From IMG/VR virus record IMGVR_UViG_3300014913_001094, positions 27,454 through 91,453 of that record: a DNA stretch of 64,000 bases. The stretch is one strand, 5' to 3'. The notes beneath the pieces were generated by a model that worked only from the letters and a program-made list of their open reading frames with translations, was not told the origin of the DNA and made no database searches. This DNA comes from a virus. Positions 5,499-28,280 of this stretch are shown here, one piece after another (position 1 is the stretch's first letter; each line of letters starts with the position of its first letter). Made by a program: the position numbers and the translations under genes.

Positions 5499-5507
5499 GG
5501 AAGAGGT

Positions 5508-8488: not shown

Positions 8489-10501
8489 ATGAAGATCTTT
8501 GACATGCTTGTTCATGAAGGACATCAATATGAACTCTGCAAATTGGGTTGTGACTTCACAGTTATGACGGATGAGAGTACAGGTAAGGTTTGGGATACAA
8601 AAATGCGTCCTGTACCATCTAATGTCACTTTTGTTGATAAAGTGGGACTATCTATAAAGACTATTGAGTCACATGATCTTGCAATTATTCGCAATTATAG
8701 ACAATTTAAATTGTTGGAAAATTGTCGCTTACCAAAAATAATTGTGATGCATTGTTCAAGACATGGTCAAGGTAATGTAGAATTTGTACAAGAAGATCTT
8801 TCTAATTATACAATAGTATTTTGTTCTCACAAGGATAAAGAAAGATGGAACCTTGCTTCTGGTAGACAGCATGTTATTTATCCTGGATTAGATCCAAATG
8901 AATGGCCAATTAGTCAAAGAACAACAAACAGAGTGTTTACAGTAGGGAGAATGATAAAAGAGCGGAGTAAGATTTGTGGTTTCAAGATTGTTGAAGAGTT
9001 CCAAAGGAGTAGGATACCAGTTAGTGTAGTTGGAGACAATCCTGCAATACAAGTTCAAGCTCCTGGTAGTTTTGAAGCATTTAAAAGAAATCATGAAAGA
9101 TATGCAGTCTATTTGAATCCAACTCTAAGGTCACCACAACCTCGTGGCCGAGTTGAAGCAATGATGTCAGGAATCCCTATTGTAACAACAGCGTTTTATG
9201 ATGAGTCATCTTTTATTGAGAACGGCATCAATGGTTTTTTCTCAAATAATGCTCAACAGTTAAAAGAATATGCTGTTTTACTGTTAAATGATCGAACCTT
9301 ACAAGAGTCAATGGCAACTAAAAGTAGACAAACAGCAGTAGAGCATTTTCACATTGATAGATTTCTTGGACAATGGAGAGAAATTATTGAAGAGATGGTT
9401 GGAAGTGCAAATATTCCTATCATCAAAGCACGACCAACGAATATATCTATGACAAGAAAAGATAGTAGTGGTGGTGGAGGAACAGTAACATCAAACAATG
9501 TAGTTGAAGGACTAAAGAAAAGCGGATACAATGTAAGCTGCTTAGATATTAACAGCAAAGGATGGGTTTCTTTTGTAAATGATATTAAGCTCCCAGCTAC
9601 TGGCGATAGAATATTCGAGAATTATATTAGACAAAATCCATGCGATGTTTTGATTTTTGATGATGTAGCTCGATATATATTATGTAAAGACTCCATCGAT
9701 CCTCATTGTCGAGTGTTTTTATGTCTTCTTGGTAATCCTCAAGTTCACTCAGAACATTGGGCAAGTTCAGGAGTAAATCTCAATGACCCAGATAATCGTA
9801 TAGAAAGAATTTTATGTAGACCTGTATATGCTAAATTTCTAAAAGTTCAATTTGGAGATGAAAGGGTGATAAGCTGGGTTGGTGGATGTGATGGAGAAGC
9901 GTTGCGTAGAGAATATGGCTCCGCTCAATATAGAAGTCCACAAGATGGAGCACTAGTTATATCAGCTCATAGAGGTACAGATTGGTGGAAAAACCCAACA
10001 ACTTCATTCCTAGCAGCTTATGGGTTATCCAAGACACATCCTGGGTTAATATATTTTAAGCCTAGCGGAAATGAGATGGAAAAGCAATTTCTTAAGCATT
10101 CGCCATTTGATATTCAATATGGTGGAACACGTAGAGAAGGAATGGAAAGAGAAAAGCTTTTAAGAACAATGGCTTGTGCTCAATTAGCAATTGAACCTGG
10201 ATATTCAGAAGGGTTTTCGAGATCTTGTAATGAGATGATGAACTTTGGTATACCAGTAATTCAAGGACCGAATGCACAGCATTTGAGACAAAACGAGCTT
10301 CTCAGTAAATACTTATTGCTTAATGATGGAAGTGATATTCAAGAATTGGTTGAAAAGTCATCAGCTCTTTTGGAAGATAAAGAGCTGTGGGAACAGGTTA
10401 GTGCAGAATGTATTGAGTTTTCTGCACAATATGATATACAACAAGAAGTAGCAACTTTACTTGAGGCTTTAGGAGATGAAGATCATGAAGCTGGCTGCTA
10501 A
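8489..10501 (+). CDS. Tandem GT-B (GT4-like) glycosyltransferase
   Basis: First unit has IYPGLD and VEAMMSGIPIVT..IENGING; second unit has SGGGG and SEGFSRSCNEMMNFGIPVI. Confidence 0.85.
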   Translation: MKIFDMLVHEGHQYELCKLGCDFTVMTDESTGKVWDTKMRPVPSNVTFVDKVGLSIKTIESHDLAIIRNYRQFKLLENCRLPKIIVMHCSRHGQGNVEFVQEDLSNYTIVFCSHKDKERWNLASGRQHVIYPGLDPNEWPISQRTTNRVFTVGRMIKERSKICGFKIVEEFQRSRIPVSVVGDNPAIQVQAPGSFEAFKRNHERYAVYLNPTLRSPQPRGRVEAMMSGIPIVTTAFYDESSFIENGINGFFSNNAQQLKEYAVLLLNDRTLQESMATKSRQTAVEHFHIDRFLGQWREIIEEMVGSANIPIIKARPTNISMTRKDSSGGGGTVTSNNVVEGLKKSGYNVSCLDINSKGWVSFVNDIKLPATGDRIFENYIRQNPCDVLIFDDVARYILCKDSIDPHCRVFLCLLGNPQVHSEHWASSGVNLNDPDNRIERILCRPVYAKFLKVQFGDERVISWVGGCDGEALRREYGSAQYRSPQDGALVISAHRGTDWWKNPTTSFLAAYGLSKTHPGLIYFKPSGNEMEKQFLKHSPFDIQYGGTRREGMEREKLLRTMACAQLAIEPGYSEGFSRSCNEMMNFGIPVIQGPNAQHLRQNELLSKYLLLNDGSDIQELVEKSSALLEDKELWEQVSAECIEFSAQYDIQQEVATLLEALGDEDHEAGC

Positions 10502-11243
10502 GACAGAGCCCAATAAAGAAAAGATGCAAACAATATGGGATGCTGGATTTCGGTATCTTGAAATTTATACAACTGTTCAAAATATCAATAAGGATAGTGA
10601 GGACTTACTTAATTCATTTGAATTTGAATATGCTATACATGCTCCTATCTATTCTTTTGATGAGAGTGTAATTGATTTTGCTCATCATGTTGGAGCACGA
10701 ATTATAAATACACATAAGATTCTTAATCCTGATAGATTTAGAGAATTAGTACAATACGCTAGAGGAAAAAATATAACAATAACAATAGAAAATGATTCAC
10801 TTCCTTCAGCTCATCAAATTAAAGATGGACAGTTGATAGTGATGCCACCAGAGCCCTTTCATGCAGCTTCAGATGGAGAGAGAATAGTACGAGACATATT
10901 AGGAGTAAAGTTGTGCTTAGATATTGAGCACGCTTGGTTAAGAGGAGAATATAGTCAGATTCTTACAGCACACGCTTCACATCACATTAGACATGTTCAT
11001 TTAACGGGCTACATATCATCCAATTCAAAAGGATTTCATAGGCCTGTATATGAGAGTGACTTTTTAGTAGAGAATACAATTCATTACCTAGCACGAGAAA
11101 GCTACGAAGGTTTTGTAGTATGTGAGCACAATGTGCAGTATCATACATTTGAAATATGGAAGAGATCTTTTGATTTTTGTAACGACATTATAGTAGAGAA
11201 AGAAATGCTAAATAGGACCAAATTAGCTAGGAGAACCAAATGA
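10476..11243 (+). CDS. TIM-barrel metalloenzyme (sugar-phosphate isomerase/epimerase, AP-endonuclease-2 family)
   Basis: AIHAP, TIEN, CLDIEHA, HVHL, FHRP, VVCEH metal-ligand pattern; the start may be ATG 10485. Confidence 0.75.
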   Translation: MKIMKLAAKTEPNKEKMQTIWDAGFRYLEIYTTVQNINKDSEDLLNSFEFEYAIHAPIYSFDESVIDFAHHVGARIINTHKILNPDRFRELVQYARGKNITITIENDSLPSAHQIKDGQLIVMPPEPFHAASDGERIVRDILGVKLCLDIEHAWLRGEYSQILTAHASHHIRHVHLTGYISSNSKGFHRPVYESDFLVENTIHYLARESYEGFVVCEHNVQYHTFEIWKRSFDFCNDIIVEKEMLNRTKLARRTK

Positions 11244-13189
11244 ATTTTCGCCTAAAAACAAGTACAAACATTCAACAAGCTATTGGAAGAAGAATGTATC
11301 CAGATCCACATATGGCTATTGTTGAGCTTGTAAGTAATTCTTATGACGCTGATGCCGATAAGGTACATGTTATTGTAACAGCAGATAAGATTATTGTCCA
11401 CGACGATGGTTGGGGCATGACAGAAGATAATCTAGCCGGATTCTTTACGATTGGTAAAAGTTCGAAAGCCCCTTCAGAAAAGGGCAGAGAGCCAATTGGA
11501 ACATTCGGAATTGGTAAATTTGCTATTCTTAGTATGGCAGAGCAGTTCTTAGTATTCTCAAAGTCTGAAACTGGTCCCTACAGAAGCTGTGCATTTTATT
11601 CACACGAAGCAGCAATAGCAGCAGGTGATTTAATCGACGACTATGAGATTGAAGTAAGTACATATTTAACAGAAGAAGAGTATGAAACTGCTCTTGTTGC
11701 AGAGATTGGTACAGAGCTGTATGATGTAAATAAAACTGGCGTTTGCATTATTATGAAGAATCTTCATAGACAATATTCTGATATGGCTATTCGAGAGAGG
11801 CTTTCTGAAATGCTTGTTCCCCAAGCAGAGAGCGAGTTCAGTGTATTTGTTAATGATGAGCTGCTTGAAGAAAAGTATGTTCATGGTCTTCGTTACGATA
11901 TTGATCTTACCACTGAATTTGGTCCAATCACAGGCGAGATTGTCATAGCAGCAGAGAGCATTGATCTTGCAGATCAGGCTGGTGTTCAAATTCAAGTACA
12001 GAGTAGAGGAGTATATAGAACCTATTTTGGACTTGAAGGTTATGATAAGTCGGCAGGTCGTCTTTCAGGATATGTGGTTGCCAATTGGCTTAAGGATGTG
12101 ATCTCTTCTAATAGAACAGATTTGATTGCCTCTCCAGAAAAAACAGCATTTGAAGCTGCTGTTACAGAAGCTATTCGTTCCATCCTCGACGTTGAAGCTC
12201 AGAAGAGAGCAGCAGAAGACGAAGAACGAAAAGCAGAAGTTCTTAATAGAGCTGTTAGAACAGTAACAAATATTTTAAACAAGCTTCCAGAGTTTGATTT
12301 TCCACAGAGACCTATGCAGTCAATGATTCCTGTAGGGATTCTCGAAGATGTTCTCGCCGGTAAAGATCCAGCAGGAGAAATAAATGAAGATGGAAGTATG
12401 GAAGCAACAGTATCTGCTGCTTCAGGTGCTTTTAAGGAATTGTTAAAATATCTAAGAGAAATAGCACCACAATTCAATGTTGATCCTTCTGATGTTCCTA
12501 CTGAAGTTCGTACCATCTCTGAATTGCTCGATGTAGTTGAGAAGGTACTTGGAGTATCGCTGGTTGAACTAATTGGAAAAGAAGCTCTTGAGCAATTAAT
12601 TAGTGCAGCTATCCCAGAAGCAGAAATGGAAGATGAAGAAAGAATTAGAGGTGCATTTAGATTAGTTAGTCAAAGAATTGAGCAGCTAATAAGAGAAATT
12701 ACAGCACAAGAAGATATGCCAACAGAATGTGCCCAACCAGCAGAAGGTGTTTCTTTACGTACTCCTATTACCAATTCGTTGGAGCTAGGTAAGATTAATC
12801 TTACTCCTATTGCTCCTCCACTTGACTTTTCTTCTTTAGATCTCAATATTAATCCTCAAGAAGACGGATATGTTCCAGATGCACCACAAGCACAAATAAA
12901 CAACTTTGTTGCTGCTAGTGTTGAGCATCTTGGAGAAGATGGTCCCGCAAGCATGGTAGCTGAGGGAGCAGGTTTCGACGGTATTCAAATTTACATTAAT
13001 GCAGATCATCCAGTATATCAAGGTATCAAAGAGGATTCCCCAAGTATGCTTGCTTTTTATCAAGCACAGTTAATTTTTGGTGAGGTTATTTTAATGCAGA
13101 ACTTTACACCAAGAGAGGCAATGGATAAACAAGCAGAACTCATGAGATTACTTGTCAATACTGACAGAAAGATTCTTAAATTTAAATAA
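11240..13189 (+). CDS. GHKL ATPase (MORC/Hsp90-like)
   Basis: YPDPHMAIVELVSNSYDADA (N box), DDGWGMT (G1), GTFGIGKFA (G2), TG; S5-like region with SSNR; C-terminal IYINADHP. Confidence 0.85.
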   Translation: MNFRLKTSTNIQQAIGRRMYPDPHMAIVELVSNSYDADADKVHVIVTADKIIVHDDGWGMTEDNLAGFFTIGKSSKAPSEKGREPIGTFGIGKFAILSMAEQFLVFSKSETGPYRSCAFYSHEAAIAAGDLIDDYEIEVSTYLTEEEYETALVAEIGTELYDVNKTGVCIIMKNLHRQYSDMAIRERLSEMLVPQAESEFSVFVNDELLEEKYVHGLRYDIDLTTEFGPITGEIVIAAESIDLADQAGVQIQVQSRGVYRTYFGLEGYDKSAGRLSGYVVANWLKDVISSNRTDLIASPEKTAFEAAVTEAIRSILDVEAQKRAAEDEERKAEVLNRAVRTVTNILNKLPEFDFPQRPMQSMIPVGILEDVLAGKDPAGEINEDGSMEATVSAASGAFKELLKYLREIAPQFNVDPSDVPTEVRTISELLDVVEKVLGVSLVELIGKEALEQLISAAIPEAEMEDEERIRGAFRLVSQRIEQLIREITAQEDMPTECAQPAEGVSLRTPITNSLELGKINLTPIAPPLDFSSLDLNINPQEDGYVPDAPQAQINNFVAASVEHLGEDGPASMVAEGAGFDGIQIYINADHPVYQGIKEDSPSMLAFYQAQLIFGEVILMQNFTPREAMDKQAELMRLLVNTDRKILKFK

Positions 13190-13198
13190 GGAGTAGAA

Positions 13199-13438
13199 AT
13201 GGTAACAGTAACAAACAGTGCTGAGTTAAATGCAGCAATTGCAGCAACAGAAGCACAGATTGTGTGTGAGACAGGTACGTATGTGGTATCTGCTGTACCA
13301 ACATACAATTGCTTGCTCACTATGAGAGTTGGGGCAATTCTAACAGGTGCAATTGAGAATTTTTGTTTAGGACATCCTGGCGCAATGGCTCATCTTGTGT
13401 ACGAAGGTGCGACAATTCCAGAAGATTATAATCCGTAG
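13199..13438 (+). CDS. Small hypothetical protein
   Basis: RBS AAGGAG; VTNSAELNAAI..GTY resembles the N-cap of beta-helix proteins. Confidence 0.55.
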   Translation: MVTVTNSAELNAAIAATEAQIVCETGTYVVSAVPTYNCLLTMRVGAILTGAIENFCLGHPGAMAHLVYEGATIPEDYNP

Positions 13439-13451
13439 GAGGATATAGATC

Positions 13452-14336
13452 ATGGCATTAGAAACTAATTTAGTATCATATTGGAAAATGGATGAAACAT
13501 CTGGAACAAGATCTGACTCAAAAGGGTCAAATGATCTTACAGCAAGTGGCGTTGACTACGACACAGGTCAGTTCAATAATGCAGCAGATTTTAATGACCT
13601 TTCAGATTATTTAACAATAGCCGATGGTAGTCAAAGTGGTCTTGACGGTTCTCTTGACTTTTCATTCTCTCTTTGGGTAAATTGGCGAGGTGTGAGTTCA
13701 AGTGGAGATAATCAGTTTATAGCTAAACACTCTAGCCCCTTCCATTCTACTAGTCCAAATTACGACCTTGCGGCCCGTCTAACTTCAGGTCGTCTGATAC
13801 TCTCTTCCACCATGACTGGAGGGAGTACTGCTTCTCTTACTGGTGGCTTTTGGACATTTTCCACAGATACATGGCATCACATTGTTGTGACAAGAGCAAA
13901 TTCTGGTAATTTGACTTTGTATCTTAATAATGTTTTATATTTTCAGACTGCTTCAGGTGGAGGAACAAGTCACGACAGCGACCGGCCATTCTATATTGGC
14001 AACCGTTACAACCCTACTCCAAGTGAAGGTGCTGATGCGCTAATTGATGAAGTTGGTTTCTGGAGTCGCGAATTGACGACTGATGAAGTTGAAGAGCTAC
14101 ATAACTCTGGTAGTGGTCTCCAATTTGATAATGAAAAGCCTGGCGAATTTGACGATATTCCTCCAATTTGTTGGAACTACACAGCACAATACAAAGGCTC
14201 TACCAAAATGTTCAAAATGTCTGGTCCTGGCGACTTCCCAAAAAGAATCAGTATCCCAGGTAATATAGATACATCAACCGGTAAAATGATTGATGATGGT
14301 CAAGAAATTGACCCTTCAAATTACGAAGTAGAGTGA
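13452..14336 (+). CDS. LamG/concanavalin A-like lectin-domain protein
   Basis: LVSYWKMDE, FSFSLWV, WHHIVVT, LYLNN, IG, IDEVGFWSRELT..EV. Confidence 0.9.
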   Translation: MALETNLVSYWKMDETSGTRSDSKGSNDLTASGVDYDTGQFNNAADFNDLSDYLTIADGSQSGLDGSLDFSFSLWVNWRGVSSSGDNQFIAKHSSPFHSTSPNYDLAARLTSGRLILSSTMTGGSTASLTGGFWTFSTDTWHHIVVTRANSGNLTLYLNNVLYFQTASGGGTSHDSDRPFYIGNRYNPTPSEGADALIDEVGFWSRELTTDEVEELHNSGSGLQFDNEKPGEFDDIPPICWNYTAQYKGSTKMFKMSGPGDFPKRISIPGNIDTSTGKMIDDGQEIDPSNYEVE

Positions 14337-14352
14337 GTAAAAAGGAAAGAAA

Positions 14353-15804
14353 ATGAAAGTAGTAACTCGATTTGCACCCACAATTAGTGGAGACCTACAT
14401 ATTGGTGGTTTGTATAATGCTCTTGTAAATTATTTGTTTGCTAAAAGGTATGATGGTGATTTTAAGCTTCGACTCGATGGAATATTTACCAACGATGACA
14501 GGCTACAATGGCAAAAGAGTCTTGAAGAGGATCTAATAACCTTTGGTTTAATTCCAGACGAGGTTCTTAGGTGCTCTGATAGACTTGAATATTACAAGAC
14601 AACAGCAACAAGCATGCTTTTGGATCACCCAAGATCATACTACTGCGACTGTACAGTGCAAGATTTATTGAAGCGTGCTGATAAAAGTGATGTAGGATTT
14701 TATCATTTATATCGTCCAGAAAAGTATCCGCCATATTGTAAGATAGCGCAAATCAAGTTATTTGGTTTAGAAAATGACAACAATATTGCAGTAGGATGTG
14801 GAGTTAAATCAGGCACTACATCGCAGAATAGTTCTATTGAATGTCTAACAGGACATACTGCAAATAAGAATAAGTATTGGGAGCCAGTAGATTCAGGTTA
14901 TGCATTTCATCCAATGAAGCCTGAAGTGACTATTCACTTCAAAGAGGCAACAGATGTGAGTGGAATCGAAATTGTATGGCGAGATAGACCAATTCAAGAA
15001 TACAAAGTAGAAGTGTGTACAGAAGGTAAAGGGAGTCAGGAAGTTGTTCACTGCAGTAAACCAGGAAGGCATTTTGTAGACCATAAACCAGGCCAACCTT
15101 ATCCTACTTTAACAAGTGATAAGCAAAGCTTTGCTGCAGTTAAGGGTACATATGTGAGGATAACTTTTATTGGATGTCCTCGACCTGTAGATCGACCATA
15201 TTTTTATGATTATCATTGTCGTGATCTTGGTAAGTCTTTAGATCTTACCGAGCGCGATGCAACAATGAGAATGAAAAATAAAGATTGGTATGAGGGTGGC
15301 TACAGTGGTCCAGTAGACTTTTTGACTCAAGAGTCAACCATTCAGCCCGAAGATCTTAATGTTGATACCTGTTGGTGGTTTGGACGAGCACCAGATTTAG
15401 TTTTTACAAGCCCGCTTGACGATCATGACCTTGGAGTTACACATTTGCTGAGAGGTGAAGATATTCAACCTTTTAGTGTGATAGAGTCACAAATTGCAGA
15501 AGCAATGGGAATGTTGGTAAAACCCCAGCTCTACCATGGAATGATAATAGATACAAGCGGATATAAGTACAGTAAGTTTGTTGAGAGTACACCAGTGAGA
15601 CAACATTTAAAAGACGGAATAACCGCTGATATGATCTTAACCTATCTTGCACACAGAACAGGATTAGTTGAAAGTCTTGATAAGATTATGACGCCCAAAC
15701 AGCTGGTACAGTGCTTTGAGGCAAGTAGTATTTTGACTCAAAATATTGTGATTGATGAAGAAATCATGATTGAAGTGATCAAAGAGAGATTTATAAGGAG
15801 CTAA
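14353..15804 (+). CDS. Class I glutamyl-tRNA-synthetase-like (GluQ-like) enzyme with inserted discoidin/F5-8C-like domain; no anticodon-binding domain
   Basis: TRFAPT.SG.LHIGG, YYCDCT, YDYHCR, DDHDLGVTHLLRGED, GYKYSK (KMSKS equivalent). Insert at about aa 128-275 has NIA.G, YW, IEIVW, YKVEV, YVRITF. Confidence 0.85.
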   Translation: MKVVTRFAPTISGDLHIGGLYNALVNYLFAKRYDGDFKLRLDGIFTNDDRLQWQKSLEEDLITFGLIPDEVLRCSDRLEYYKTTATSMLLDHPRSYYCDCTVQDLLKRADKSDVGFYHLYRPEKYPPYCKIAQIKLFGLENDNNIAVGCGVKSGTTSQNSSIECLTGHTANKNKYWEPVDSGYAFHPMKPEVTIHFKEATDVSGIEIVWRDRPIQEYKVEVCTEGKGSQEVVHCSKPGRHFVDHKPGQPYPTLTSDKQSFAAVKGTYVRITFIGCPRPVDRPYFYDYHCRDLGKSLDLTERDATMRMKNKDWYEGGYSGPVDFLTQESTIQPEDLNVDTCWWFGRAPDLVFTSPLDDHDLGVTHLLRGEDIQPFSVIESQIAEAMGMLVKPQLYHGMIIDTSGYKYSKFVESTPVRQHLKDGITADMILTYLAHRTGLVESLDKIMTPKQLVQCFEASSILTQNIVIDEEIMIEVIKERFIRS

Positions 15805-15807: not shown

Positions 15808-17448
15808 ATGGCCAGTACACCTACCGATAATTTCGGTTATGACAAGCCAGCAGCTGGTGACAGAGGCTGGGGTACAACAATGAATACCAATCTTACCAAT
15901 CTCGATGTTCATCTTGCAGCTGAACATCGCAGTAGTTCAGGTAATGAAGGTAAGCATGGTCCCAATCTTACAATTCTTAATTCAAACTCAACTCCAGCTC
16001 TTGATATCACTCAGAGTGCAGGATCTGCAGTAGCAGTTAATATTACTAATTCGACAACAACTGCGGGTGATATGCTTTCCATTAATTGCAACTCGAGCAC
16101 TGGCAGCGCCGTATCAGTCACCTCAACTCATACTAATAATTATGTCACTTTGATTGATATTGATGACAGCTCTACAAATTCCGGTGGCTGCACTTTTAGT
16201 GTAAAGAGTGCAAGGAAAGTCGGTGCTGGGGGTGCTAAGTTTGAGAACACATCTACTCACTCAAACAGTTCTTCATTGGCAGTATCAAAGGCTGCAGGAA
16301 CAAGTGGTAGGGTTCTCAAGGTCACCAACGATGGTAATGGTATAGGAATAGATATAAATCATTCTAGCGATGGTGTTATTATAGATATTGATTGCACAAA
16401 CGCTGGTTCTGGTATTATGACCATCAATCAATCAGGAGCAAGTGGTGGTGCAGGCATCACAATGACAACAATATGTAATCAGGAGGCTCTAGGAATAACT
16501 GCAAATGGTACTCACAGTAATGCTCACGGCATTGAGCTCACCAATAGTGGTGGTGGCAAGGTCTTGTGGCTCAAACAGTATGCATCTGGCATTGGAATAG
16601 ATTTAGATTACAATCACACCACTAGTGGCAATGCAGCAATTGATATTGATACATCAAACCCTGCCAATGTTATTGATATTAACAAAACTCATACAGGTAG
16701 TGGAAGTCCGATCAGTATCAACAACTCTGGTACAGGTGTTGGTATTTATGCACAACAAGTTGGTACAGGATATGGTCTACAAATTAGAAAGACAGCAACC
16801 TCTGGAACGACAGCACTTCTTGAATGTACCTCTACGGCTAATACGAGCACTCTCTTGTCAATAAGTCACAGTGGTACTGGGAATGCAATAACAGTCAGTC
16901 CTTTGAGCTCAGGTAAAGGTATTTTTGTCAACAAGACGACAGTAGCCGCTGGAGCTTGTATTGATATTATGAACTCTGGAACTGGTCATAGTATTAATAT
17001 TACACAAAATGGTGATCAAATACCAATAAGAGTTTCAATGGCAAGTGGCAACACTTATGCTGCCATTTACGTTACAAATTCTGGTTCTGGACATCACTTT
17101 GATACTGATGCTGGTTCAGGTACCGCAGCTCATTTAACAAATGGTGGTGTTTGGACTGATGCGTCTTGCTTTAGAGAGTTTAAAGAAGAGATTGAAGAAC
17201 TAGATGCTGAGGCACTAACTGACGTATTAGATAGGGTTAGTGAGATGCCAGTTGCTCGTTATTATGATAAGGCAGATAAGGCTAAAGTACGTCGTCGTCG
17301 TTTTGGTCCATTCCAAGATGAATTGGTTGATCGGTTTGGTCTTGATCCTCGTGGAGTCAGTCCAGTAGAAGTAGCCACAATTGCACTTGCTGCAGTTAAA
17401 GCTCTTAAAGCCGAGATGAATGATCTTAAAAAGCAGTTAGGTCAATAA
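15808..17448 (+). CDS. Fibre/spike protein: beta-solenoid with C-terminal intramolecular chaperone (peptidase S74-like)
   Basis: N-terminal T.NFGYDKP..G..GWG..MN.N..LD attachment motif; (I/V)xIxNSGxG repeats; C-terminal S..REFKEEI..VSEMPV..Y..FGP..EL..LAAVKAL coiled coil. Confidence 0.8.
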   Translation: MASTPTDNFGYDKPAAGDRGWGTTMNTNLTNLDVHLAAEHRSSSGNEGKHGPNLTILNSNSTPALDITQSAGSAVAVNITNSTTTAGDMLSINCNSSTGSAVSVTSTHTNNYVTLIDIDDSSTNSGGCTFSVKSARKVGAGGAKFENTSTHSNSSSLAVSKAAGTSGRVLKVTNDGNGIGIDINHSSDGVIIDIDCTNAGSGIMTINQSGASGGAGITMTTICNQEALGITANGTHSNAHGIELTNSGGGKVLWLKQYASGIGIDLDYNHTTSGNAAIDIDTSNPANVIDINKTHTGSGSPISINNSGTGVGIYAQQVGTGYGLQIRKTATSGTTALLECTSTANTSTLLSISHSGTGNAITVSPLSSGKGIFVNKTTVAAGACIDIMNSGTGHSINITQNGDQIPIRVSMASGNTYAAIYVTNSGSGHHFDTDAGSGTAAHLTNGGVWTDASCFREFKEEIEELDAEALTDVLDRVSEMPVARYYDKADKAKVRRRRFGPFQDELVDRFGLDPRGVSPVEVATIALAAVKALKAEMNDLKKQLGQ

Positions 17449-17449: not shown

Positions 17450-18790
17450 ATGGTTCTTTGGAATGAGTCAGGTTGGGATGCCGCAAGGTGGGATCTAGGC
17501 GGAAGTGAATTAGCTTCTGACTGGTTTCAGATTGCATATGACGGCGACACAGAGATAGCTGGCATTCTAAGTATTATTGAGTTTGATGGCGATTTGTATG
17601 CTGGTACTAGCGATGGTAGAGTTATAACATCAGTAAATGGTACAACATGGTCTCTTGCTTATGATTCGCTAGAAGATGAGATGCATGGTCTTGCACTCTT
17701 CGGCGGTGACTTATATGCTATAACAGGAAACAATGGAAGAGTACTAAAGACCACTGATGGTTCTTCCTGGACTCTTGCTTACGACTCTCCACAGACAGAT
17801 TTATTTGCAATTCAAGAATTCAGTAGCTATTTATATGTGGGTGGCGACAATGGAGTAATCTACAGAAGTAGCGATGGTGCTACCTGGACTCTTGCTTACG
17901 ATTCTCCACAAACTACCATTCATGATTTTGGAGATTTCAATGGCTCCCTATTTGCCGCAACAGGAACTAATGGGGTGATTTATTCTAGTGCAGACGGAAC
18001 AACATGGTCTCTCGCTTATGACTCTCCGCAAACTGGAATTTTATCATTAGCATCTTTAGATCCTTCTTTAGATCCTTATGTTGACGATACACTCTTTGCT
18101 GGAGTTGATACGTCGTTCTTAATCTATAAGACTACTGATGGTACAACGTGGGAAGTTGCATATGATGGACCAGACGGTGCTGGTGGCGTTAATAGTATGT
18201 ATGCAACTGATGCAATGATATTTGCTGGCTCTGATACAGATGGATCATTATTTAAAAGCGACGATGGTCTCACTTGGTTCATGAGCTATGACTCACCAGC
18301 AGGTTCAATCAATGCAATGGCTCCATGGTCTAGCAATTGTAATCTATATTTAGGTGCTGATGAATTTGTATATAGTATGGATAATCTTCCGCAGATATCT
18401 CTTGCTGATACATGTCCTGATATTACTGCACCAGATGGTGGAGAGACAATAACAGTTGATACCTTTACGGTTCAATGGAGTGTAGAAGATGATACAAATC
18501 TCGTTTTTGATGTTGAGTATTCAAGAAATTGGTCAACGAATAGAGATTGGGAGACTGCAGTAGATGATACTGGAGGAGATCCAGGACATACAGGAGCGCC
18601 TCTCACAGGAATACCAGGAGATCCAAATGGTAACTACCTAGAGGCTGATTGGAATGTTTTACCAATTGTTGACAGTACAGATATGAAAATTAGGATTAGA
18701 GCGAGAGATACCAGTGCTTCTGGATGTGCACGAATAGGATCTTGGAACGAATCAGAAGATATATTCGAACTTAATAATGGACCTTGTTAG
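17450..18790 (+). CDS. Asp-box (BNR-type) beta-propeller protein, about 7 blades, with C-terminal Ig/Fn3-like domain
   Basis: Six S/T-x-(D/N)-G-x-(T/S)-W-x-x-x-YD repeats plus an N-terminal WFQIAYD; then PDGGE..VQW..IRIRA. Confidence 0.85.
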   Translation: MVLWNESGWDAARWDLGGSELASDWFQIAYDGDTEIAGILSIIEFDGDLYAGTSDGRVITSVNGTTWSLAYDSLEDEMHGLALFGGDLYAITGNNGRVLKTTDGSSWTLAYDSPQTDLFAIQEFSSYLYVGGDNGVIYRSSDGATWTLAYDSPQTTIHDFGDFNGSLFAATGTNGVIYSSADGTTWSLAYDSPQTGILSLASLDPSLDPYVDDTLFAGVDTSFLIYKTTDGTTWEVAYDGPDGAGGVNSMYATDAMIFAGSDTDGSLFKSDDGLTWFMSYDSPAGSINAMAPWSSNCNLYLGADEFVYSMDNLPQISLADTCPDITAPDGGETITVDTFTVQWSVEDDTNLVFDVEYSRNWSTNRDWETAVDDTGGDPGHTGAPLTGIPGDPNGNYLEADWNVLPIVDSTDMKIRIRARDTSASGCARIGSWNESEDIFELNNGPC

Positions 18791-19775
18791 TCCAGGAAGA
18801 GGAAAGATGACAGCTTTAGGAATAACATGCTGGTCAGCGACAAAGGCTAATTTTGAAATAATGAAAGAACTTGGTTGCACTGAGTTTTACTCTGTAGTAG
18901 AGTGGTGTAATCATCATAAGTCTCCTGATCATTATTACTGGAGTCAGTTAGATAAAGAATTTGCTCTTGAAGAACAATATGGAATTAAGAGCATAAGAGT
19001 AATAATGCACACACCATTGTGGGCATCAGGAGTTGATCGTACAGATTGTAAGTTTAGACCTAGATCTTATCCGCCAAGAACGTTAGAATATTATGGTCGT
19101 TTTTGTGCTGCTCTTGTAAGAAGATATCCAGATAGAGAATGGATACTTTGGGGTGAGCCAGATAACTCTTGGCCACGAGAAGACGCGAAAATTATACAGT
19201 GGGCAGGTGATGCTGAAACATATGCTAAAATGGCAAAGTATGCATATGTGGAAATGAAGAAAGCTGATTCTAAATGTGTTGTGGGACTTGGAAGTCTTGT
19301 TGGAGCAACGCTGAATGGAACTTATCGAACAGTAGTAGAGAATAATAAGCCTCTCAATAAGCTACCGTTTTTTGAAAAGTTGTTAGAATTAGATATGGGC
19401 AATTATTGTGATTTCATTCCCCTTGATCTCTATTGCTGGGGTTACGGAGGATCAAGAAACTTTTTAGCAGGAATTCGAAAAATAAAGGGAATAATGGCTG
19501 ACTTTAATGTAAAGAAGCCACTATATATAATGGAGTGTGGTGCCAAGATAACTCCTCCAGGAGGAAAGATGAGAGAGGAATTTCATCACGAGGTAGTGAA
19601 TGAAGAAACTCAGGCTGGTTTCTTACTACGCGCCTACAAGTGGTCCCAAGAGAACAAAATTGACAAATTGTTCTGGCATACCTTAAAGGATAGTAATTGG
19701 GGAGTCATTAATCGCTTGGGTAGACCACATCTGAGTTACCATGTATTTAAAGCCATGAAAGCGGGTTCGTTTTGA
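18777..19775 (+). CDS. Clan GH-A glycoside hydrolase (GH39/GH5-like)
   Basis: YYWSQLD, TPLWAS, WILWGEPD (acid/base), KPLYIMECG (nucleophile), EETQA, LFW, WG; the start may be ATG 18807. Confidence 0.8.
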   Translation: MDLVSPGRGKMTALGITCWSATKANFEIMKELGCTEFYSVVEWCNHHKSPDHYYWSQLDKEFALEEQYGIKSIRVIMHTPLWASGVDRTDCKFRPRSYPPRTLEYYGRFCAALVRRYPDREWILWGEPDNSWPREDAKIIQWAGDAETYAKMAKYAYVEMKKADSKCVVGLGSLVGATLNGTYRTVVENNKPLNKLPFFEKLLELDMGNYCDFIPLDLYCWGYGGSRNFLAGIRKIKGIMADFNVKKPLYIMECGAKITPPGGKMREEFHHEVVNEETQAGFLLRAYKWSQENKIDKLFWHTLKDSNWGVINRLGRPHLSYHVFKAMKAGSF

Positions 19776-21557: not shown

Positions 21558-23609
21558 ATGGTAGACTATAACGATACACCACAATCTGGTGGTCCTTTAG
21601 AATCGTCATCGCTTCGTGATAATTTTCAGATTTTGAGAAACGCAACTGGATTATATGCATCAGAAACAGATCTTTTAAGTTTAGCTGTGAATGTACATGA
21701 AGGGTACTATCAAACTAATTATGTCAATAGTATTTTTCTTTCTGAACAAGATAGTCCTGCTTTAGCAGCTAATCATGTAAGTGGCGACGGTGGTGTTCTT
21801 GGTCAACAAAGAATTGCTACACTTACAGTTGAAGCAATAGGAAGTTTCCCTTCAATAGTAAGCACTTTGAGCTGGGTTGTAGGAAGCTGGGAAACACCTC
21901 CTACTACTCCTAACCCTCCTCCTATTTTTCCTAATCGTATTCCAATTTGCAATGTTTTGATTACATTCGATATGACAGAGGTAACAAACGACCTCATCAC
22001 CGACACTCGTCCTTTAATAAGTCTTGGTGGAGATGGTCCTACAGGTATCACAGGGACACAAGGAATAACAGGTCTTCAAGGTATCCAAGGTGCAACTGGG
22101 AGTCTAGGTATTCAAGGAGACACAGGTGCTTTAGGAAATACAGGAGTCCAAGGTATCCAAGGTGACCAAGGAGATACAGGAGTCCAAGGACTACAAGGTG
22201 ACACAGGTACTCAAGGTACAATTGGAAGTGCAGGAATCCAAGGCGACACTGGAATCCAAGGCGACACGGGTATCCAAGGTGACACGGGTCCTATAGGAGC
22301 GACAACTCTTCAAGCAGCTTATGATGGTGGAAATACGATTATTCCAACTGGTCTTGGTCTTGGTGGGGATGAAGTAGAGATATTCCCAACTCCTGGCACA
22401 GGAGGAATCAGAATGGTATCTTCTGGAGGTAGTTTTCCTTCTCTCCTTATTCAACATATGACTAATGGACCAGCGAACCCAAGCGGACAACCGATCCGCA
22501 TAGAAACAGGAACTGTTGGTAATGGAGATAGTACAACAGGAACGGCTCTACGCATAGTTGCAGATAGTTCTTTTTCAAGTGGGAATGGAACCTCTGGCTT
22601 ACATATATCTACTGGGCATTCAAATTCTGGTAGAGCAGTGTTCATTGATAGTAGAGGGACATCGGCAAATGCAATAGGTCTTCGAATCGACAGAATAGAT
22701 GCCTCTAGCGTAGGAGCCCTAGGCTCCCTCATGGCTGTTACAAATTCTGCCTCTGGTCGTTTGATGGTTATATCAGATAGATTGTCAACGAGTACTGCTG
22801 ATACAATATTATTTGATCACAGGACTCAAGGCATCGTTCTCAATATTGATTCAACAAATACAGCAAATGCAGCTAATATTGTTGATATCACAAATAGTGG
22901 TACTGGTGATAGTGTTGAAATTAATCAAGTTGGTGCTGGTGCAGCTCTTGATATAAATTATACCAATACTGGTTCAAGTAATGTAATTGATATTGTTAGT
23001 TCAAGCACTGGTGATGTTATTGCTATTGTTAAGAACGATACTGGTGTTGGAAGTCCAATTGATATTATTAACAAAGGTTCAGCCGCATCAATCAGGATTA
23101 TTGATGAAGGTACCGGAACAATGCTCGACCTGACCCAAAGTGGGTCAGGTATAGCGATGCTACTAAATAAATCACACACTGGTAGCGACACTTGTCTTGA
23201 CATCAACAATAGTGGTACAGGTACTGCAATATCTATTGCTCAATATGCATCGAGTACAGCAATGTTAATAGAATCGACATCAGCAAGTACAGCAGATTGT
23301 GTTCAAATTAAGAATAGTGGTTCAGGTAGAGGTCTTTACATTTCACAAAGTGCCACAGCAAGTGCAAGTAAAGTGATAGATATTGATAATAGTGGTACAG
23401 GAATTGGTATTAATCTCAATCAATCAACAACTACAGCCCCTGCCTTTGTAATGGGTGGTGCTGCTGATAGGTTTGAATTGACAAATTCTAAAACACCATT
23501 GAATGCTTCAGATACAGGTACAGTAGGAACTATATGTTGGGATGCAAGTTATGTTTATGTTTGCACAGCAACGAATACTTGGAAGAGAACAGCAATAGCA
23601 AGTTGGTAA
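21558..23609 (+). CDS. Fibre protein: attachment domain, short collagen stalk, beta-solenoid and C-terminal tip motif
   Basis: G-X-Y run at about 22035-22300; IDIxNSGTG repeats like 15808; ends TP..ASDTG..G.ICWD..YVYVC.ATNTWKR.A..SW, a recurrent phage fibre motif. Confidence 0.8.
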   Translation: MVDYNDTPQSGGPLESSSLRDNFQILRNATGLYASETDLLSLAVNVHEGYYQTNYVNSIFLSEQDSPALAANHVSGDGGVLGQQRIATLTVEAIGSFPSIVSTLSWVVGSWETPPTTPNPPPIFPNRIPICNVLITFDMTEVTNDLITDTRPLISLGGDGPTGITGTQGITGLQGIQGATGSLGIQGDTGALGNTGVQGIQGDQGDTGVQGLQGDTGTQGTIGSAGIQGDTGIQGDTGIQGDTGPIGATTLQAAYDGGNTIIPTGLGLGGDEVEIFPTPGTGGIRMVSSGGSFPSLLIQHMTNGPANPSGQPIRIETGTVGNGDSTTGTALRIVADSSFSSGNGTSGLHISTGHSNSGRAVFIDSRGTSANAIGLRIDRIDASSVGALGSLMAVTNSASGRLMVISDRLSTSTADTILFDHRTQGIVLNIDSTNTANAANIVDITNSGTGDSVEINQVGAGAALDINYTNTGSSNVIDIVSSSTGDVIAIVKNDTGVGSPIDIINKGSAASIRIIDEGTGTMLDLTQSGSGIAMLLNKSHTGSDTCLDINNSGTGTAISIAQYASSTAMLIESTSASTADCVQIKNSGSGRGLYISQSATASASKVIDIDNSGTGIGINLNQSTTTAPAFVMGGAADRFELTNSKTPLNASDTGTVGTICWDASYVYVCTATNTWKRTAIASW

Positions 23610-24395: not shown

Positions 24396-27300
24396 ATGAC
24401 TACTGTCAGCATATGTATGATTGTTAAGAATGAGGAAGAGGTCCTTGCACGATGCCTCAAATCTCTCGGTAATTTTCCTGATCAATTAGTTATAGTAGAC
24501 ACAGGTTCAATAGATAGAACAATTGAAATTGCAAAGGAATTTGGAGCTGAAATTCATCACTTCGAATGGATACGAGACTTTGCCAAAGCGCGTAACTATT
24601 CCTTTAGTAAGGCAACTTGCGACTATGTTTTCTGGCTTGATGGCGACGATGAAATTGCACCAGAAGAGCTTGAAAAGCTAATGACTCTCAAATCTAATCT
24701 CACCAAAGATATGTATCTAATGGTTTATGATTACTTCCAAGATGCAGACGGTAATCCTAAATGTGATCTTTGGAGAGAGCGCCTTGTAAAACGAGAGTTG
24801 GGATTGAAGTGGCGCTATCCAATTCACGAATGTATCCCTATGGATCAGCGTCCTCTTGAAACAGAGCAAGTTCCAATTCGAATTACACACAAACGAACAG
24901 AGGCTGGATTTGCTAGCGACCTCAGCCGTAATATAGATATTCTTGAAAATGCTGTAAGAGGCGATTATGCCGACGATCCTCGTGTTAGATATTATTTAGC
25001 TAAAGAGATTCATGACAATAGAGATTTTGAAAGAGCATCAAGAGAGTACACAAAGTTTCTTAATATGAATGCCGGCTGGTATGAAGATAAATTATATGCA
25101 CAATTTAAATTAGCTCAGTGTTATTATGAAATGGGCTGCGACAAACAAAGGCAAGTAGAGAAATTTGAAAAGCAAGCAAGAGAAGCAAAGAATAGTAAGA
25201 AGCGAGAACAAGCAACAAGAGCAGCTAATCGCCGCAAGAAGCAGGTAAGTATACAGCATGATAATGCAAGAAAAGCCGCAAAGCAAGCGATTAAAAGCGA
25301 TTCTCAATTTGCAGAGCCATACTATGTTCTTGGTCAACTTGCAATGGATGAGCAAGATCATGATGAAGCCATCTACTGGTTTGAAAAAGCGTTTAGACCA
25401 TTTCCTAATGTTCTAAGTCCTATTCGAAGAGACTTTTATACATGGATGCCAGCTCTTCAGTTATGTGTATGTCACAGTAACCGTGGTGACTATGAACAAG
25501 CAAGCTATTACAATGAACAAGCTGCCAAGGAAAATCCACAACATTCTTCTATTATTCATAATACGAAATATTTTGCTGAGAAGCTTGAAGAAAAAACGCA
25601 AAGAAAAACTCCAGAAGGAGATATTTCTGTTAAGTTGAATCTTGGTAGTGGAAATAAAAGATACAAAGATTACACGAGTTGTGATCTGTTTCCAGGAGCA
25701 GAAGTAGATGAAGTATTTCCCCTAAATGATATTCCATATGAAGACCAAACCGTAGATGCAATTCATAGTGAACATTCTCTTGAGCATCTTCGTCATGTCG
25801 ACGCAAGGTCAGCCATACAAGAATGGGCACGAGTTTTGAAGCCAGGTGGAGAGTTGCATCTTCAGATTCCAGACCTTGAAGAGTGTTGTAGAAAATATAT
25901 AGAGGCAGTACAAAACGGAGATCGAAGACTACAACAATGGTATATGTATACAATATTCGGTATACAAAAATCACAAGCCGACGAGCCGGATGAAGGTCAA
26001 ATTCATTATACAGGATTTAATTTGGCTGAGATTTTAGACTTACTTAAAGATGCTGACTTCATAATAGATTATTATGGAAAATACGATGGACATAGTACGC
26101 CGTCTCTTGAGATAAGAGCTGTTAAAGCAATCGGTTCAATCAGAATAGGATGGTTGGGTCAAACATGTCTTGAAAGTCCACAGTATAGAATTCGAACACA
26201 CCATATAGATAGATGGCTTCGCAGCAGAGGATATCGTACAGAGATCTCCCAAAAAGATCAAAAGTATGACACTGTGATTGCTGATAACGGTACACCATAT
26301 AGGACAATACAACAATACAAGAAAGAGGGTTCAAGAGTAATTCTCAATTTATGTGAAGACTATGACACAATGCTTTCTAAAGAAGAGATGAAAGTAGAAC
26401 AAAGAAGATATGAGGTTGTAGATCTTATAGTATGTTGCTCTCATGCCCTAGCTGAGAAGTTGAAAAAATATAATACTGTTGTAATAGAAGACGCAGTTGA
26501 AGTCGATTTTAATTTAAACTGCACTTATGAAAACAAAGAACAATTGACAGTTGGTTGGATCGGTATGGGTGGTAATGTCGTTCATGCAGAAAGACTGCGT
26601 CCACTAATTGAAGAGCTAGGATATAAGCTTGTCACAATTCATGAACACGATAATGCAGATGTAAAGTGGGATTTGAACACTTGGCAACAAGAGTTAGCAA
26701 AATGTGATATGGCAATAGCTCCAATTGATCATCATAAGCAACCCAGCAAATCAAATAATAAACTGACAACATATATGGCTCTTGGTCTTCCTACTGTCGT
26801 CAGTCCACTAGATGCATATAAACACGTTGTTGATAATGGTCCTTCTAATTATCCATTTTACATTGCATATAATGATGAAGGATGGAAACATTGTTTGGCT
26901 TGTCTAGGAAATGTTGAGCATCGAAGAGAAATGGGATTTGACGCAAAAGAAAAAGCAAAAGAATATAGCCTTGATGCAATAGGTCAGAAATGGGTAGATG
27001 TCTTAATTGAAACTGACTGGATGAGCGATGAAGATTGGGATAAGTTATCTGTATCATCACTCGAAAGATTATATGAAGACGAAGATAGAGCAGAACAACT
27101 TGTTGATATAATTATTCCTACATATGGTAAAGATGATTATCTTCAAGCATGTATCAATAGCATTAAGACATGTACAACTGACTATCCATATAATATTATA
27201 GTTGTTGATAGCCTAAAGCTGGGACTGAATTTTTCTCAAGCAGTAAATCATGGAATTAGACAATCAACAGCATCGCATGTATGTATTATGAATGACGATG

Positions 27301-28280
27301 TAATAGTATCAAAAGGATGGTTAAAGCCATTGCTTGAAGAGTTAAAAGATGATGTTGGTTTTGCGAACCCATTGAGTAATTGCGACAAGGGATGGTTACA
27401 TAATTATGATCTTAAAGCAGGTGAAGTAAATCTGCTTCCTGGCGTTCATAAGCTAGGCGAGGTTGATCCATATGCAATTTATGATTTTAAATCTCCTTCT
27501 ACAAAAAGATATAAACGAGATTGGCTTCCTTTATACTGCACTTTAGCAACAAAAGAAGCTATTGAAAAAATAGGATATCTCGATGAAGAGTTTGAAACAG
27601 GAAGTGAAGATTTAGATTATTGTAAGAGAGCAGAAAAGCTTGGAATAAAATGTGCAGTAGCAGAAGATTCGTTTGTGTTTCATTTTGGAGGAGTGAGTCG
27701 CAAAGCACATGAAATGGAAGATCGTAGTGTTCATCAAGAAGAAGACACAAAGAATCAGAACAGAATTGGATTTAAATACAATCGTCCGCTCGTTGTAATC
27801 CAGTCAGGATTAGCCTATGAGGACTGGGATGCGAATACGTTAAGAGAAAAGGGTTGTGGTGGTAGTGAACTAGCTGCTTGTATGATGGCAGAAAATTTTG
27901 CTAAGCAGGGATACAGAGCGGTAGTATTTGCTCAAACAGGAAAACCGAAGCAGGTAATTAATCAAGTAGAGTGGTACGATCAAAGTGAGTGGTTGAATTT
28001 CATCGACATGAATCATATTAGTATCTGCGTTGTTTCGCGCTATGCAAACTATCTTGAAGATTCAATAAGAGCAGATCAGCTATGGCTCTGGACGCATGAT
28101 ATTTTTGCGATGTGTAGTAAGGTTGGAGATGTCGACTTAGTTCAAAAGAATTACGATAAGCTGACAGGAATTTTTGTATTATCCAAATGGCATGCCTGCT
28201 TTATGGCTGATTACCATGGGATATCAACAGAAAAGACATGGGTTACAGGAAATGGTATAAATTTGAAGGGAAGTGAATAA
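24396..28280 (+). CDS. Multidomain glycosyltransferase: GT2 - TPR - SAM methyltransferase - GT4-like - GT2 - N-terminal half of GT4
   Basis: SICMIVKNEE..VDTGS.D..DFAKARN..WLDGDD..IHE; TPR helices; KLNLGSG..HSLEH..RVLKPGG; KSNNKLTTYMALGLP; IIIPT..MNDDV..EDLDYC; GCGGSE..LWTHD..LSKWH..NGI. Confidence 0.9.
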   Translation: MTTVSICMIVKNEEEVLARCLKSLGNFPDQLVIVDTGSIDRTIEIAKEFGAEIHHFEWIRDFAKARNYSFSKATCDYVFWLDGDDEIAPEELEKLMTLKSNLTKDMYLMVYDYFQDADGNPKCDLWRERLVKRELGLKWRYPIHECIPMDQRPLETEQVPIRITHKRTEAGFASDLSRNIDILENAVRGDYADDPRVRYYLAKEIHDNRDFERASREYTKFLNMNAGWYEDKLYAQFKLAQCYYEMGCDKQRQVEKFEKQAREAKNSKKREQATRAANRRKKQVSIQHDNARKAAKQAIKSDSQFAEPYYVLGQLAMDEQDHDEAIYWFEKAFRPFPNVLSPIRRDFYTWMPALQLCVCHSNRGDYEQASYYNEQAAKENPQHSSIIHNTKYFAEKLEEKTQRKTPEGDISVKLNLGSGNKRYKDYTSCDLFPGAEVDEVFPLNDIPYEDQTVDAIHSEHSLEHLRHVDARSAIQEWARVLKPGGELHLQIPDLEECCRKYIEAVQNGDRRLQQWYMYTIFGIQKSQADEPDEGQIHYTGFNLAEILDLLKDADFIIDYYGKYDGHSTPSLEIRAVKAIGSIRIGWLGQTCLESPQYRIRTHHIDRWLRSRGYRTEISQKDQKYDTVIADNGTPYRTIQQYKKEGSRVILNLCEDYDTMLSKEEMKVEQRRYEVVDLIVCCSHALAEKLKKYNTVVIEDAVEVDFNLNCTYENKEQLTVGWIGMGGNVVHAERLRPLIEELGYKLVTIHEHDNADVKWDLNTWQQELAKCDMAIAPIDHHKQPSKSNNKLTTYMALGLPTVVSPLDAYKHVVDNGPSNYPFYIAYNDEGWKHCLACLGNVEHRREMGFDAKEKAKEYSLDAIGQKWVDVLIETDWMSDEDWDKLSVSSLERLYEDEDRAEQLVDIIIPTYGKDDYLQACINSIKTCTTDYPYNIIVVDSLKLGLNFSQAVNHGIRQSTASHVCIMNDDVIVSKGWLKPLLEELKDDVGFANPLSNCDKGWLHNYDLKAGEVNLLPGVHKLGEVDPYAIYDFKSPSTKRYKRDWLPLYCTLATKEAIEKIGYLDEEFETGSEDLDYCKRAEKLGIKCAVAEDSFVFHFGGVSRKAHEMEDRSVHQEEDTKNQNRIGFKYNRPLVVIQSGLAYEDWDANTLREKGCGGSELAACMMAENFAKQGYRAVVFAQTGKPKQVINQVEWYDQSEWLNFIDMNHISICVVSRYANYLEDSIRADQLWLWTHDIFAMCSKVGDVDLVQKNYDKLTGIFVLSKWHACFMADYHGISTEKTWVTGNGINLKGSE

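Follow-up and report, generated by a model that had tools for sequence, protein, structure and literature searches.

A GluQRS-like ligase of a large phage with a probably permuted lectin-fold domain in its zinc knuckle, and a possible role in glycan acylation

The stretch of DNA analysed here (the window; 64,000 nucleotides) comprises bases 27454–91453 of the 91,453-bp IMG/VR virus record IMGVR_UViG_3300014913_001094, which derives from an uncultured large phage. At 14353..15804 on the + strand it holds a complete gene for a 483-residue class I ligase related to GluQRS, into which a β-sandwich has been inserted, as judged from the list of open reading frames (ORFs), Pfam and an AlphaFold2 (AF2) model. 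This protein, hereafter the ligase, is best described as a tRNA synthetase paralogue with a non-canonical acceptor, its novelty being a lectin-fold domain, probably circularly permuted, that sits in the zinc knuckle. With a confidence that falls somewhat short of even, we favour a role as a tRNA-independent glutamyl ligase that would acylate a sugar in a phage glycan pathway; the more specific proposal, that it is a tRNA-independent glutamyl (aminoacyl) transferase decorating a glycan of the virion surface by way of the permuted lectin domain in its zinc knuckle, is more tentative. The family to which the ligase belongs is undescribed.

Results

A class I catalytic core without an anticodon-binding domain

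The ligase gene is preceded by an AGGA-type ribosome-binding site 7–8 nt 5' of its start. Pfam matches the product to tRNA-synt_1c (2.8e-30) in two stretches, residues 2–107 and ~347–470, and places between these halves an F5_F8_type_C domain (PF00754; residues 171–273, E 1.5e-6) whose score of 28.8 bits is barely above the gathering cut-off of 28.2. The ligase has ~330 residues without its insert and ends 75 residues beyond the motif K405-Y-S-K408, and the anticodon-binding domain (PF19269) was not found by Pfam in the ligase or its relatives. Both Pfam and the length of the protein agree with an earlier reading of this DNA from its sequence alone (the original prediction), in which the protein was said to stop about 75 residues after KYSK and to lack an anticodon-binding domain. 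Among the NCBIfam models, the ligase reaches 106 bits against the GluRS model TIGR00464 (cut-off 289.95, and thus below the equivalog threshold), and it is likewise below threshold for the GluQRS models TIGR03838 (88 bits, cut-off 276.7) and NF004314 (91.2 bits, cut-off 256).

The motifs of the Rossmann core are intact and lie where they had been placed by the original prediction (R6-F-A-P9, H16-I-G-G19, R367-G-E-D370 and K405-Y-S-K408). Their conservation was counted in an alignment of 30 family sequences with identities of 26–55%. In the HIGH-type motif H16-I-G-G19 (14398..14409, +), assigned to ATP binding, H16 and G18 are invariant (30/30), as are K405, S407 and K408 of the KMSKS-type motif (15565..15576, +). 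R40-L-D42-G43 (14470..14481, +) is the counterpart of the GluRS motif RIED in a HMMER alignment to 6b1p; both R40 and D42 are invariant, and D42 occupies the position of GluRS E41, where an aspartate is the state of archaeal and eukaryotic GluRS and of GlnRS. The amino-acid pocket, P347-D-L349...S353..D356-D357...R367-G-E-D370-I371 (15391..15465, +), aligns with PTYNFAVVVDD...RGEDH of GluRS, with L349, S353, G368 and D370 invariant. A variable loop (residues 308–337; 15274..15363, +), delimited by alignment gaps and low model confidence, is present in only some family members; its predicted local distance difference test score (pLDDT) averages 56 over residues 311–320 and 77 over 321–340, and drops below 50 at residues 313–315.

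The family retains the glutamate triad almost without exception, R6 and R367 being found in 29 and D357 in 28 of the 30 sequences. These residues correspond to R5, R205 and D195 of Thermus thermophilus GluRS, which form a strictly conserved glutamate-recognition network (PMC2978374). The equivalent of Tyr187 in that enzyme is Leu in the ligase; many archaeal GluRS have Leu or Met in place of this tyrosine, which is not critical (PMC2978374). It is next to the acceptor site that the ligase has changed, at the D-T-D within EDTD and at the position that follows RGED. HMMER alignments to GluRS of known structure bear out the changes of RIEDTD to RLDGIF and of PTY to PDL, from which the original prediction had drawn the hint of a new substrate. 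That hint was not upheld: because the triad is kept, Leu or Met replaces Tyr187 in archaeal GluRS and Asp is known at the E41 position, L-glutamate, or an acidic analogue close to it, most likely remains the substrate. The adenylating enzyme that had been proposed is consistent with the retention of all adenylation machinery, and since HIGH, KMSKS, the zinc cysteines and the glutamate triad are conserved, the ligase is probably enzymatically active, to judge from its sequence.

The AF2 model of the ligase, built on 19 homologues, has a pLDDT of 86.7 and a predicted template-modelling score of 0.85. In exhaustive structural comparison (VIA-align), its core matched the catalytic domains of bacterial GluRS at Z 26–28.5 (best 2cfo, Z 28.5) and E. 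coli GluQRS (4a91, residues 4–294) at Z 27.9, the latter over 282 of its 290 residues. Further class I enzymes rank lower, among them PyrN-C (9l8v, Z 17.5) and MshC (3c8z, Z 16.4).

A zinc knuckle interrupted by the insert

The zinc site of the ligase is a GluQRS-type CxC...YxxxC motif interrupted by the insert. Its first half, C98-x-C100 (14644..14652, +), is invariant (30/30) and aligns with the CxC of GluRS and GluQRS, while the second, Y283-F-Y285-D-Y-H-C289 (15199..15219, +), was assigned by conservation, with C289 in all 30 sequences and Y283, Y285 and D286 in 29 each. The motif is compact in E. coli YadB (CxC-x11-Y-x3-C), a spacing from which the ligase departs, with 184 residues from C100 to Y285; the spacer of the family's two insert-less members, P0136 and P0137, is also longer. 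The invariant cysteines and the nearly invariant Y285 confirm the split, from C98/C100 to Y285/C289, that had been noticed at the outset. In GluRS the zinc knuckle adjoins the region that binds the CCA end of tRNA (PMC2978374).

Directly 5' of the insert lies a family-specific motif, R121-P-E-K-Y-P-P-Y-C129 (14713..14739, +), in which K124 is invariant and R121, Y125 and E123 are present in 29, 28 and 27 of the 30 sequences, whereas C129 is found in only 21. Y125 and C129 make up a second YxxxC, and both MAFFT and the GluQRS hidden Markov model (HMM) favour pairing it with the GluRS motif. A core zinc site of C98/C100/C129/C289 was nonetheless rejected, and Y285/C289 taken as the true zinc half, because C129 is missing from nine of the sequences and has no equivalent in P0136 and P0137. 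Those two proteins keep the E-K-Y motif and the CxC, and their Y-D-x-H-C-R is the same motif as the second zinc half and resembles the Y-D-G-H-C-R of GluRS and GluQRS.

The insert has a galactose-binding-like fold

The insert, of ~150 residues, separates the CxC half of the zinc knuckle from the YxxxC half. As modelled, its body (residues 139–279; 14767..15189, +; VIA-align and Pfam PF00754) is a galactose-binding-like β-sandwich of the CBM32/discoidin type, and AF2 with structure comparison of the whole protein and of the insert thereby supports the fold that had been predicted. In the full-length model the insert matches 4zxe (Z 13.1, root-mean-square deviation (rmsd) 2.3, 116 residues aligned), 8ayr (Z 12.9) and 2v72 (Z 12.8), and a separate model of residues 115–300 matches the same structures at Z 11–12.7 (4zxe 12.7, 2v72 11.9). 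The best CBM32 matches have an rmsd of 2.0–2.5 Å over 113–120 residues, and those further down of up to 3.4 Å, at identities of 12–18%. The top matches, at Z 11–13, are carbohydrate-binding modules: the chitosan-binding 4zxe, 2v72, 4lks and 2j1a (galactose complexes), and F-lectins. The isoelectric point and net charge of both core and insert spread widely among family members and give no hint as to whether the partner is RNA or a sugar. No further discoidin domain was detected in the window or the related loci with an HMM of the insert.

Unlike CBM32 modules, the insert sits within an enzyme's zinc knuckle and lacks the usual final strand at its C-terminal side, while a strand of that character precedes the domain; for this reason the insert is probably permuted. 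The candidate for the displaced last strand is residues 130–137 (KIAQIKLFG; 14740..14766, +; DSSP strand E130–137), which appears to resemble in sequence the usual final strand of the sandwich. It lies outside every CBM32 structural alignment, in which the last 10–14 residues of the targets stay unmatched, and the Pfam F5_F8_type_C match reaches only position 113 of the 127 in the profile. The circular permutation put forward in the original prediction is consistent with these unmatched ends, although they leave it unproven. When a 78-residue fragment permuted by hand was compared with the native arrangement by hmmscan, it matched F5_F8_type_C at E 0.29, and the match ended at position 114 with the moved strand uncovered.

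A family known from metagenomes only

A word-indexed search returned 18 full-length homologues, all metagenomic and 35–55% identical to the ligase, after which there was a gulf to ordinary GluRS covering only ~23% of the query. A complete search with HMMER through 1.84 billion representatives brought in another ~17 cluster representatives, including three GC-rich members and the two without an insert. The fusion seen in the original prediction belongs to a family of at least 35 representatives, two of them insert-less, known from metagenomes only. P0137 lacks both arginines of the glutamate triad, and may have another substrate or be inactive.

In a FastTree phylogeny of 284 columns, rooted on archaeal GluRS, members of the ligase family form one clade (support 0.999), which joins that of GluQRS (0.87) and lies apart from bacterial GluRS. 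The insert-less pair P0136/P0137 is nested within the family, a position which suggests that the insert was either lost or repeatedly gained.

Searches elsewhere gave no further members. Tblastn against GenBank phages and Foldseek against BFVD returned synthetases and F5/8C proteins apart and did not find the fused architecture, and scans of viral contigs with the family alignment and with the insert-less P0136 had no match. A search of genome contigs with the GC-rich member P0141 gave only ordinary archaeal GluRS and no cellular member, this search being pattern-based rather than exhaustive. A feature search of the ESM Atlas around the ligase produced no usable match, and literature searches turned up no phage paralogue of GluQRS or GluRS that carries a carbohydrate-binding domain as an insert.

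Sugar enzymes accompany the ligase in four phage lineages

The related loci fall into four divergent phage lineages whose ligases share only 29–35% identity: L002–L011 with L015, the closest; L012–L014 (35%); L035/L036 (32%); and L037 (29%), the last two lineages from IMG/VR. The only neighbours constant across all four are glycosyltransferase and glycosidase-like genes. The original prediction had located the gene among lectin and fibre genes, which is true but incomplete, as the surroundings also hold glycosyltransferases and a glycosidase-like gene. In L002–L011 and L015 the order is a GT4-like protein of 670 residues, a xylose-isomerase-like barrel, a GHKL ATPase and the ligase, followed on the 3' side by a fibre-like protein, a β-propeller, a 332-residue protein and a multi-glycosyltransferase protein. 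L012–L014 retain the GT4-like protein, the GHKL ATPase, the ligase, a GH-A-like protein and a GT2 homologue. In L035/L036 and L037, a GH-A-like homologue, a double-GT2-plus-TPR protein and a protein of ~300 residues (β-propeller-like in L035, without a Pfam match in L037) precede the ligase gene, which in L037 has GT2s, GT4s and methyltransferases on its flanks as well.

One of the two genes of the window with counterparts in all four lineages encodes a 332-residue protein resembling GH-A (TIM-barrel) glycoside hydrolases (18777..19775, +). It had no Pfam or PHROG match, and the assignment comes from its ESM Atlas structure (template-modelling score 0.80–0.83 to GH39/GH5/GH42 clusters, feature score 0.96) and a match to PslG (E 7e-4); homologues are present in L013, L014, L015, L035/36 and L037. 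The other is the GT2 part of a 1294-residue multi-domain glycosyltransferase/methyltransferase (24396..28280, +; PHROG β-1,4-glycosyltransferase 3.7e-44, together with glycosyltransferase and methyltransferase families), which has homologues in L013–L015; in L035 and L037, proteins with a double GT2 and TPR are encoded no more than one gene away from the ligase. Between the ligase and GH-A-like genes, L014 has six tandem ORFs of similar size (162–177 residues; 12076–15082) and L013 three (4208–5791), and the L013 and L014 copies match each other.

Upstream of the ligase gene, the 670-residue GT4-type glycosyltransferase-like protein (8489..10501, +; Pfam Glycos_transf_1 2.7e-12, TarM match E 8e-4) is syntenic in L003, L004, L008, L011, L012 and L014. 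The xylose-isomerase-like TIM barrel that follows (10476..11243, +; Pfam AP_endonuc_2 1e-10) is confined to the closest relatives (L003, L004, L008 and L011) and absent from L014. The GHKL (MORC/MutL-like) ATPase of 649 residues (11240..13189, +; Pfam HATPase_c_3 2.4e-18, MORC3 match 2.4e-4) is encoded directly upstream of the ligase in most clade-A relatives; its absence from clade-B contexts led us to reject it as an obligatory partner of the ligase. This ATPase has a long acidic C-terminal part and a weak PHROG match to RIIA. Ahead of these genes, the window encodes two small proteins without a family match, of 124 (7663–8037) and 144 residues (8050–8484); the former is 65–73% identical among the closest relatives and corresponds in L014 to the C-terminal part of a 672-residue protein.

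The junction between the GHKL ATPase and ligase genes (13190–14352) is a hot spot for accessory genes. Here it holds an ORF of 79 residues and the gene for an accessory LamG/ConA-like lectin-fold protein (13452..14336, +; Pfam Laminin_G_3 1.7e-21), which has no homologue in loci L002–L016. The same junction carries a gene of 474 residues in L003, of 176 in L005, of 140 in L007, and two of 126 and 177 in L011, and is empty in L002, L004, L006 and L008. Downstream, the ligase gene is followed by that of a fibre/spike-like protein (15808..17448, +) with a weak S74 chaperone-like C-terminus (Pfam Peptidase_S74, E 0.0056). Only the ends of this protein are conserved, and partial homologues occur 3' of the ligase gene in L002–L009 and L015.

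Glycosylation and fibre genes in the wider window

Between 44131 and 59335 the window has 14 ORFs with matches to glycosyltransferase families (GT2, GT4 and GT-like), 12 of them above the Pfam cut-off. This run is followed by a polysaccharide pyruvyl transferase (59332–60087) and a DegT/EryC1 sugar aminotransferase (62590–63678; 4.6e-81). Methyltransferases and a GT-D-like protein are also encoded between 44131 and 63678, and a gene resembling endonuclease VII (46855–47370) lies in the middle of the glycosyltransferase run.

Two collagen-like proteins of 1581 and 1636 residues (29307–34052 and 34064–38974) contain 417 and 438 G-X-Y triplets, in which the Y position is mostly Gln or Thr. Their genes form a patch with a GC content of 47–50%, against ~38% elsewhere, and a smaller collagen-repeat fibre is encoded at 21558–23609. 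Upstream of the structural and glycosylation block is a gene for a protein of the IMPDH/GMP-reductase family (4026–5090; Pfam 4.6e-82).

Discussion

We propose that the ligase would be an active class I adenylate-forming enzyme descended from the GluQRS branch. In a first step, which we infer from the conserved residues, HIGG and KYSK would bind ATP, and R6, D42, D357 and R367 would hold L-glutamate or a very similar acidic amino acid; the enzyme would then form glutamyl-AMP without tRNA, as GluQRS does. The latter needs no tRNA to activate Glu, and it forms its ester on a cyclopentene-diol (PMC3542578), a diol other than the 3'-terminal ribose. In a second step, the aminoacyl group would be passed to a carbohydrate instead of the 3' end of a tRNA, the carbohydrate being held by the CBM32-fold domain that would replace the tip of the zinc knuckle, the element that normally shapes the acceptor site. 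A hydroxyl or an amino group of the sugar may act as nucleophile; the move from the cyclopentene-diol of queuosine to a sugar diol would be chemically small, MshC is a class I paralogue that acylates an amino sugar, and the phage makes amino sugars. The acceptor would be a glycan built by the many glycosyltransferases of the phage and probably displayed on proteins of the virion, for instance the collagen-like fibres rich in Thr and Gln. It is the fold and the gene neighbourhood that suggest a sugar acceptor, sugar binding by the insert and a connection to a virion glycan, and the proposal as a whole draws on the fold, on where the insert lies, on the conserved residues of catalysis and zinc binding, and on the existence of a family that is akin to GluQRS and syntenic with sugar enzymes.

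Several observations weigh against acylation of a sugar. Two family members, P0136 (295 residues) and P0137 (290 residues), are entirely without the insert and are the size of GluQRS, the nearest characterised relative, which acts on tRNA. Members of the fold that bind proteins (HECTD3 DOC, APC10 and IFT25) match the insert nearly as well as the carbohydrate-binding modules do, at Z 9.5–11.5, and the galactose-binding-like fold also serves in lipid and DNA binding. Insert residues are poorly conserved, and because only W176 is kept (27/30), no conserved sugar-binding site can be identified. Nearly all genes of the window lie on the + strand, and as genes on one strand could share a late-gene order, the co-location with sugar enzymes may reflect conservation of that order. 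Genes for tRNA or queuosine could also lie in the missing half of the genome, since CheckV estimates the completeness of the whole record at ~54%.

Comparison with known systems places the ligase closest to GluQRS (YadB, TIGR03838), which is likewise a truncated GluRS core of ~300 residues without an anticodon-binding domain, and with which it shares the CxC...YxxxC zinc motif, the glutamate triad and the nearest clade. It differs in scoring far below the GluQRS cut-offs, in having a zinc motif split by a 150-residue CBM32-fold domain, in its extra R-x-E-K-Y motif and altered PTY and EDTD, and in that its family is found only on phage-like metagenome contigs beside sugar enzymes. With bacterial GluRS (TIGR00464) it has in common the Rossmann core, HIGH, KMSKS, the glutamate-binding arginines and the position of the zinc knuckle, but it has no PF19269 domain, reaches 106 bits where 290 are required and falls in a separate clade. 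The likeness to CBM32/F5-F8 type C modules is that of the β-sandwich fold of the insert. MshC, a CysRS paralogue that ligates Cys to GlcN-Ins, and PyrN, a MetRS-like O-aminoacyl-hydroxylamine synthetase, share the class I fold and pass an aminoacyl group from the adenylate to an amino sugar and to hydroxylamine, respectively. The ligase, in contrast, derives from GluRS and not from CysRS or MetRS, and those enzymes lack a lectin-fold insert and belong to cellular secondary metabolism. The likeness to MshC is one of mechanism only; its structural match (12% identity) is generic for class I, and neither MshC nor PyrN matches better than ordinary class I synthetases.

That the ligase is still a tRNA modifier like GluQRS, glutamylating queuosine or another hypermodified or glycosylated anticodon-loop base of a host or phage tRNA, with the insert as an extra RNA- or nucleoside-binding or regulatory module, we consider unlikely, though it would account for the position in the tree, the zinc motif, the retained triad, the superposition of the core on the E. 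coli enzyme and the existence of insert-less relatives of GluQRS size. The NCBIfam scores of 88–91 bits against cut-offs of 256–277 speak against it, as do the 150-residue domain that occupies the zinc knuckle on the acceptor side and the change of the EDTD-type motif by the acceptor site to DG(I/x)(F/x). Furthermore, no tRNA gene was found in the whole 91-kb record or in nine related loci, TGT and QueC were not found in the incomplete 91-kb record, and the constant neighbours of the gene are sugar enzymes rather than translation or RNA genes. An acceptor in a protein, such as a side chain of a collagen-like fibre or of another virion protein, on which the sandwich would dock in the manner of DOC or APC10, is more doubtful again. 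It would suit the protein-binding matches of the insert, the position of the gene in a structural region beside fibre-like and β-propeller proteins, and the GT2-TPR neighbours, which suggest proteins as substrates of the cluster, and there is a precedent in PoxA/EpmA, a LysRS paralogue that modifies EF-P (PMC3542578). The top structural matches are, however, carbohydrate-binding modules, and no conserved partner other than enzymes stands out among the neighbours. To our knowledge, no class I synthetase paralogue modifies a protein.

Phage glycosyltransferases also build glycans on DNA bases (bioRxiv 10.1101/2023.12.21.572611, PMC13326640), and the ligase might add an amino acid to such a DNA-linked sugar; the conserved MutL/MORC-like GHKL ATPase and the AP-endonuclease-2/xylose-isomerase-like barrel would fit a process of this kind, which we nevertheless regard as improbable. 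Both genes are absent from clade-B contexts, and the many glycosyltransferases, the pyruvyl, methyl and amino-sugar enzymes and the GT2-TPR fusions are better suited to protein or polysaccharide glycans. A C5-cytosine methyltransferase was not found in the 91-kb record, itself incomplete, and a search there for Tet/JBP dioxygenases was negative but uninformative, as it was negative in all control genomes too; aminoacyl groups and tRNA synthetases are not mentioned in bioRxiv 10.1101/2023.12.21.572611. Least probable is a structural or lectin protein that reuses the synthetase fold and has no catalytic activity. The gene does lie among virion genes, and the insert-less P0137 has lost both triad arginines, but HIGH, KMSKS, the zinc cysteines and pocket residues are invariant over 30 sequences at 26–55% identity, and an inert role is hard to hold because invariant catalytic residues are difficult to explain without catalysis.

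Synthetase paralogues outside translation are few, and each has opened new chemistry, as GluQRS, MshC, PoxA and the hydrazine synthetases illustrate. Even if the acceptor of the ligase were tRNA, a GluQRS carrying a lectin-fold insert would be unexpected. If it is a sugar, the family would show that phage glycans are decorated with amino acids and would open a new way of making aminoacylated sugars; it would be a natural case of a synthetase retargeted by domain insertion, useful for enzyme engineering, and it would add to the emerging picture of large phages building elaborate glycan coats. Should the acceptor prove to be a virion glycan, the ligase would be the first glycan-tailoring enzyme derived from an aminoacyl-tRNA synthetase, and its insert the first carbohydrate-binding module through which a synthetase fold recognises its acceptor. 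The design of the family is clear and testable: an apparently intact glutamate-activating core, with an acceptor site that would be rebuilt around a lectin-fold domain, set in phage glycosylation cassettes.

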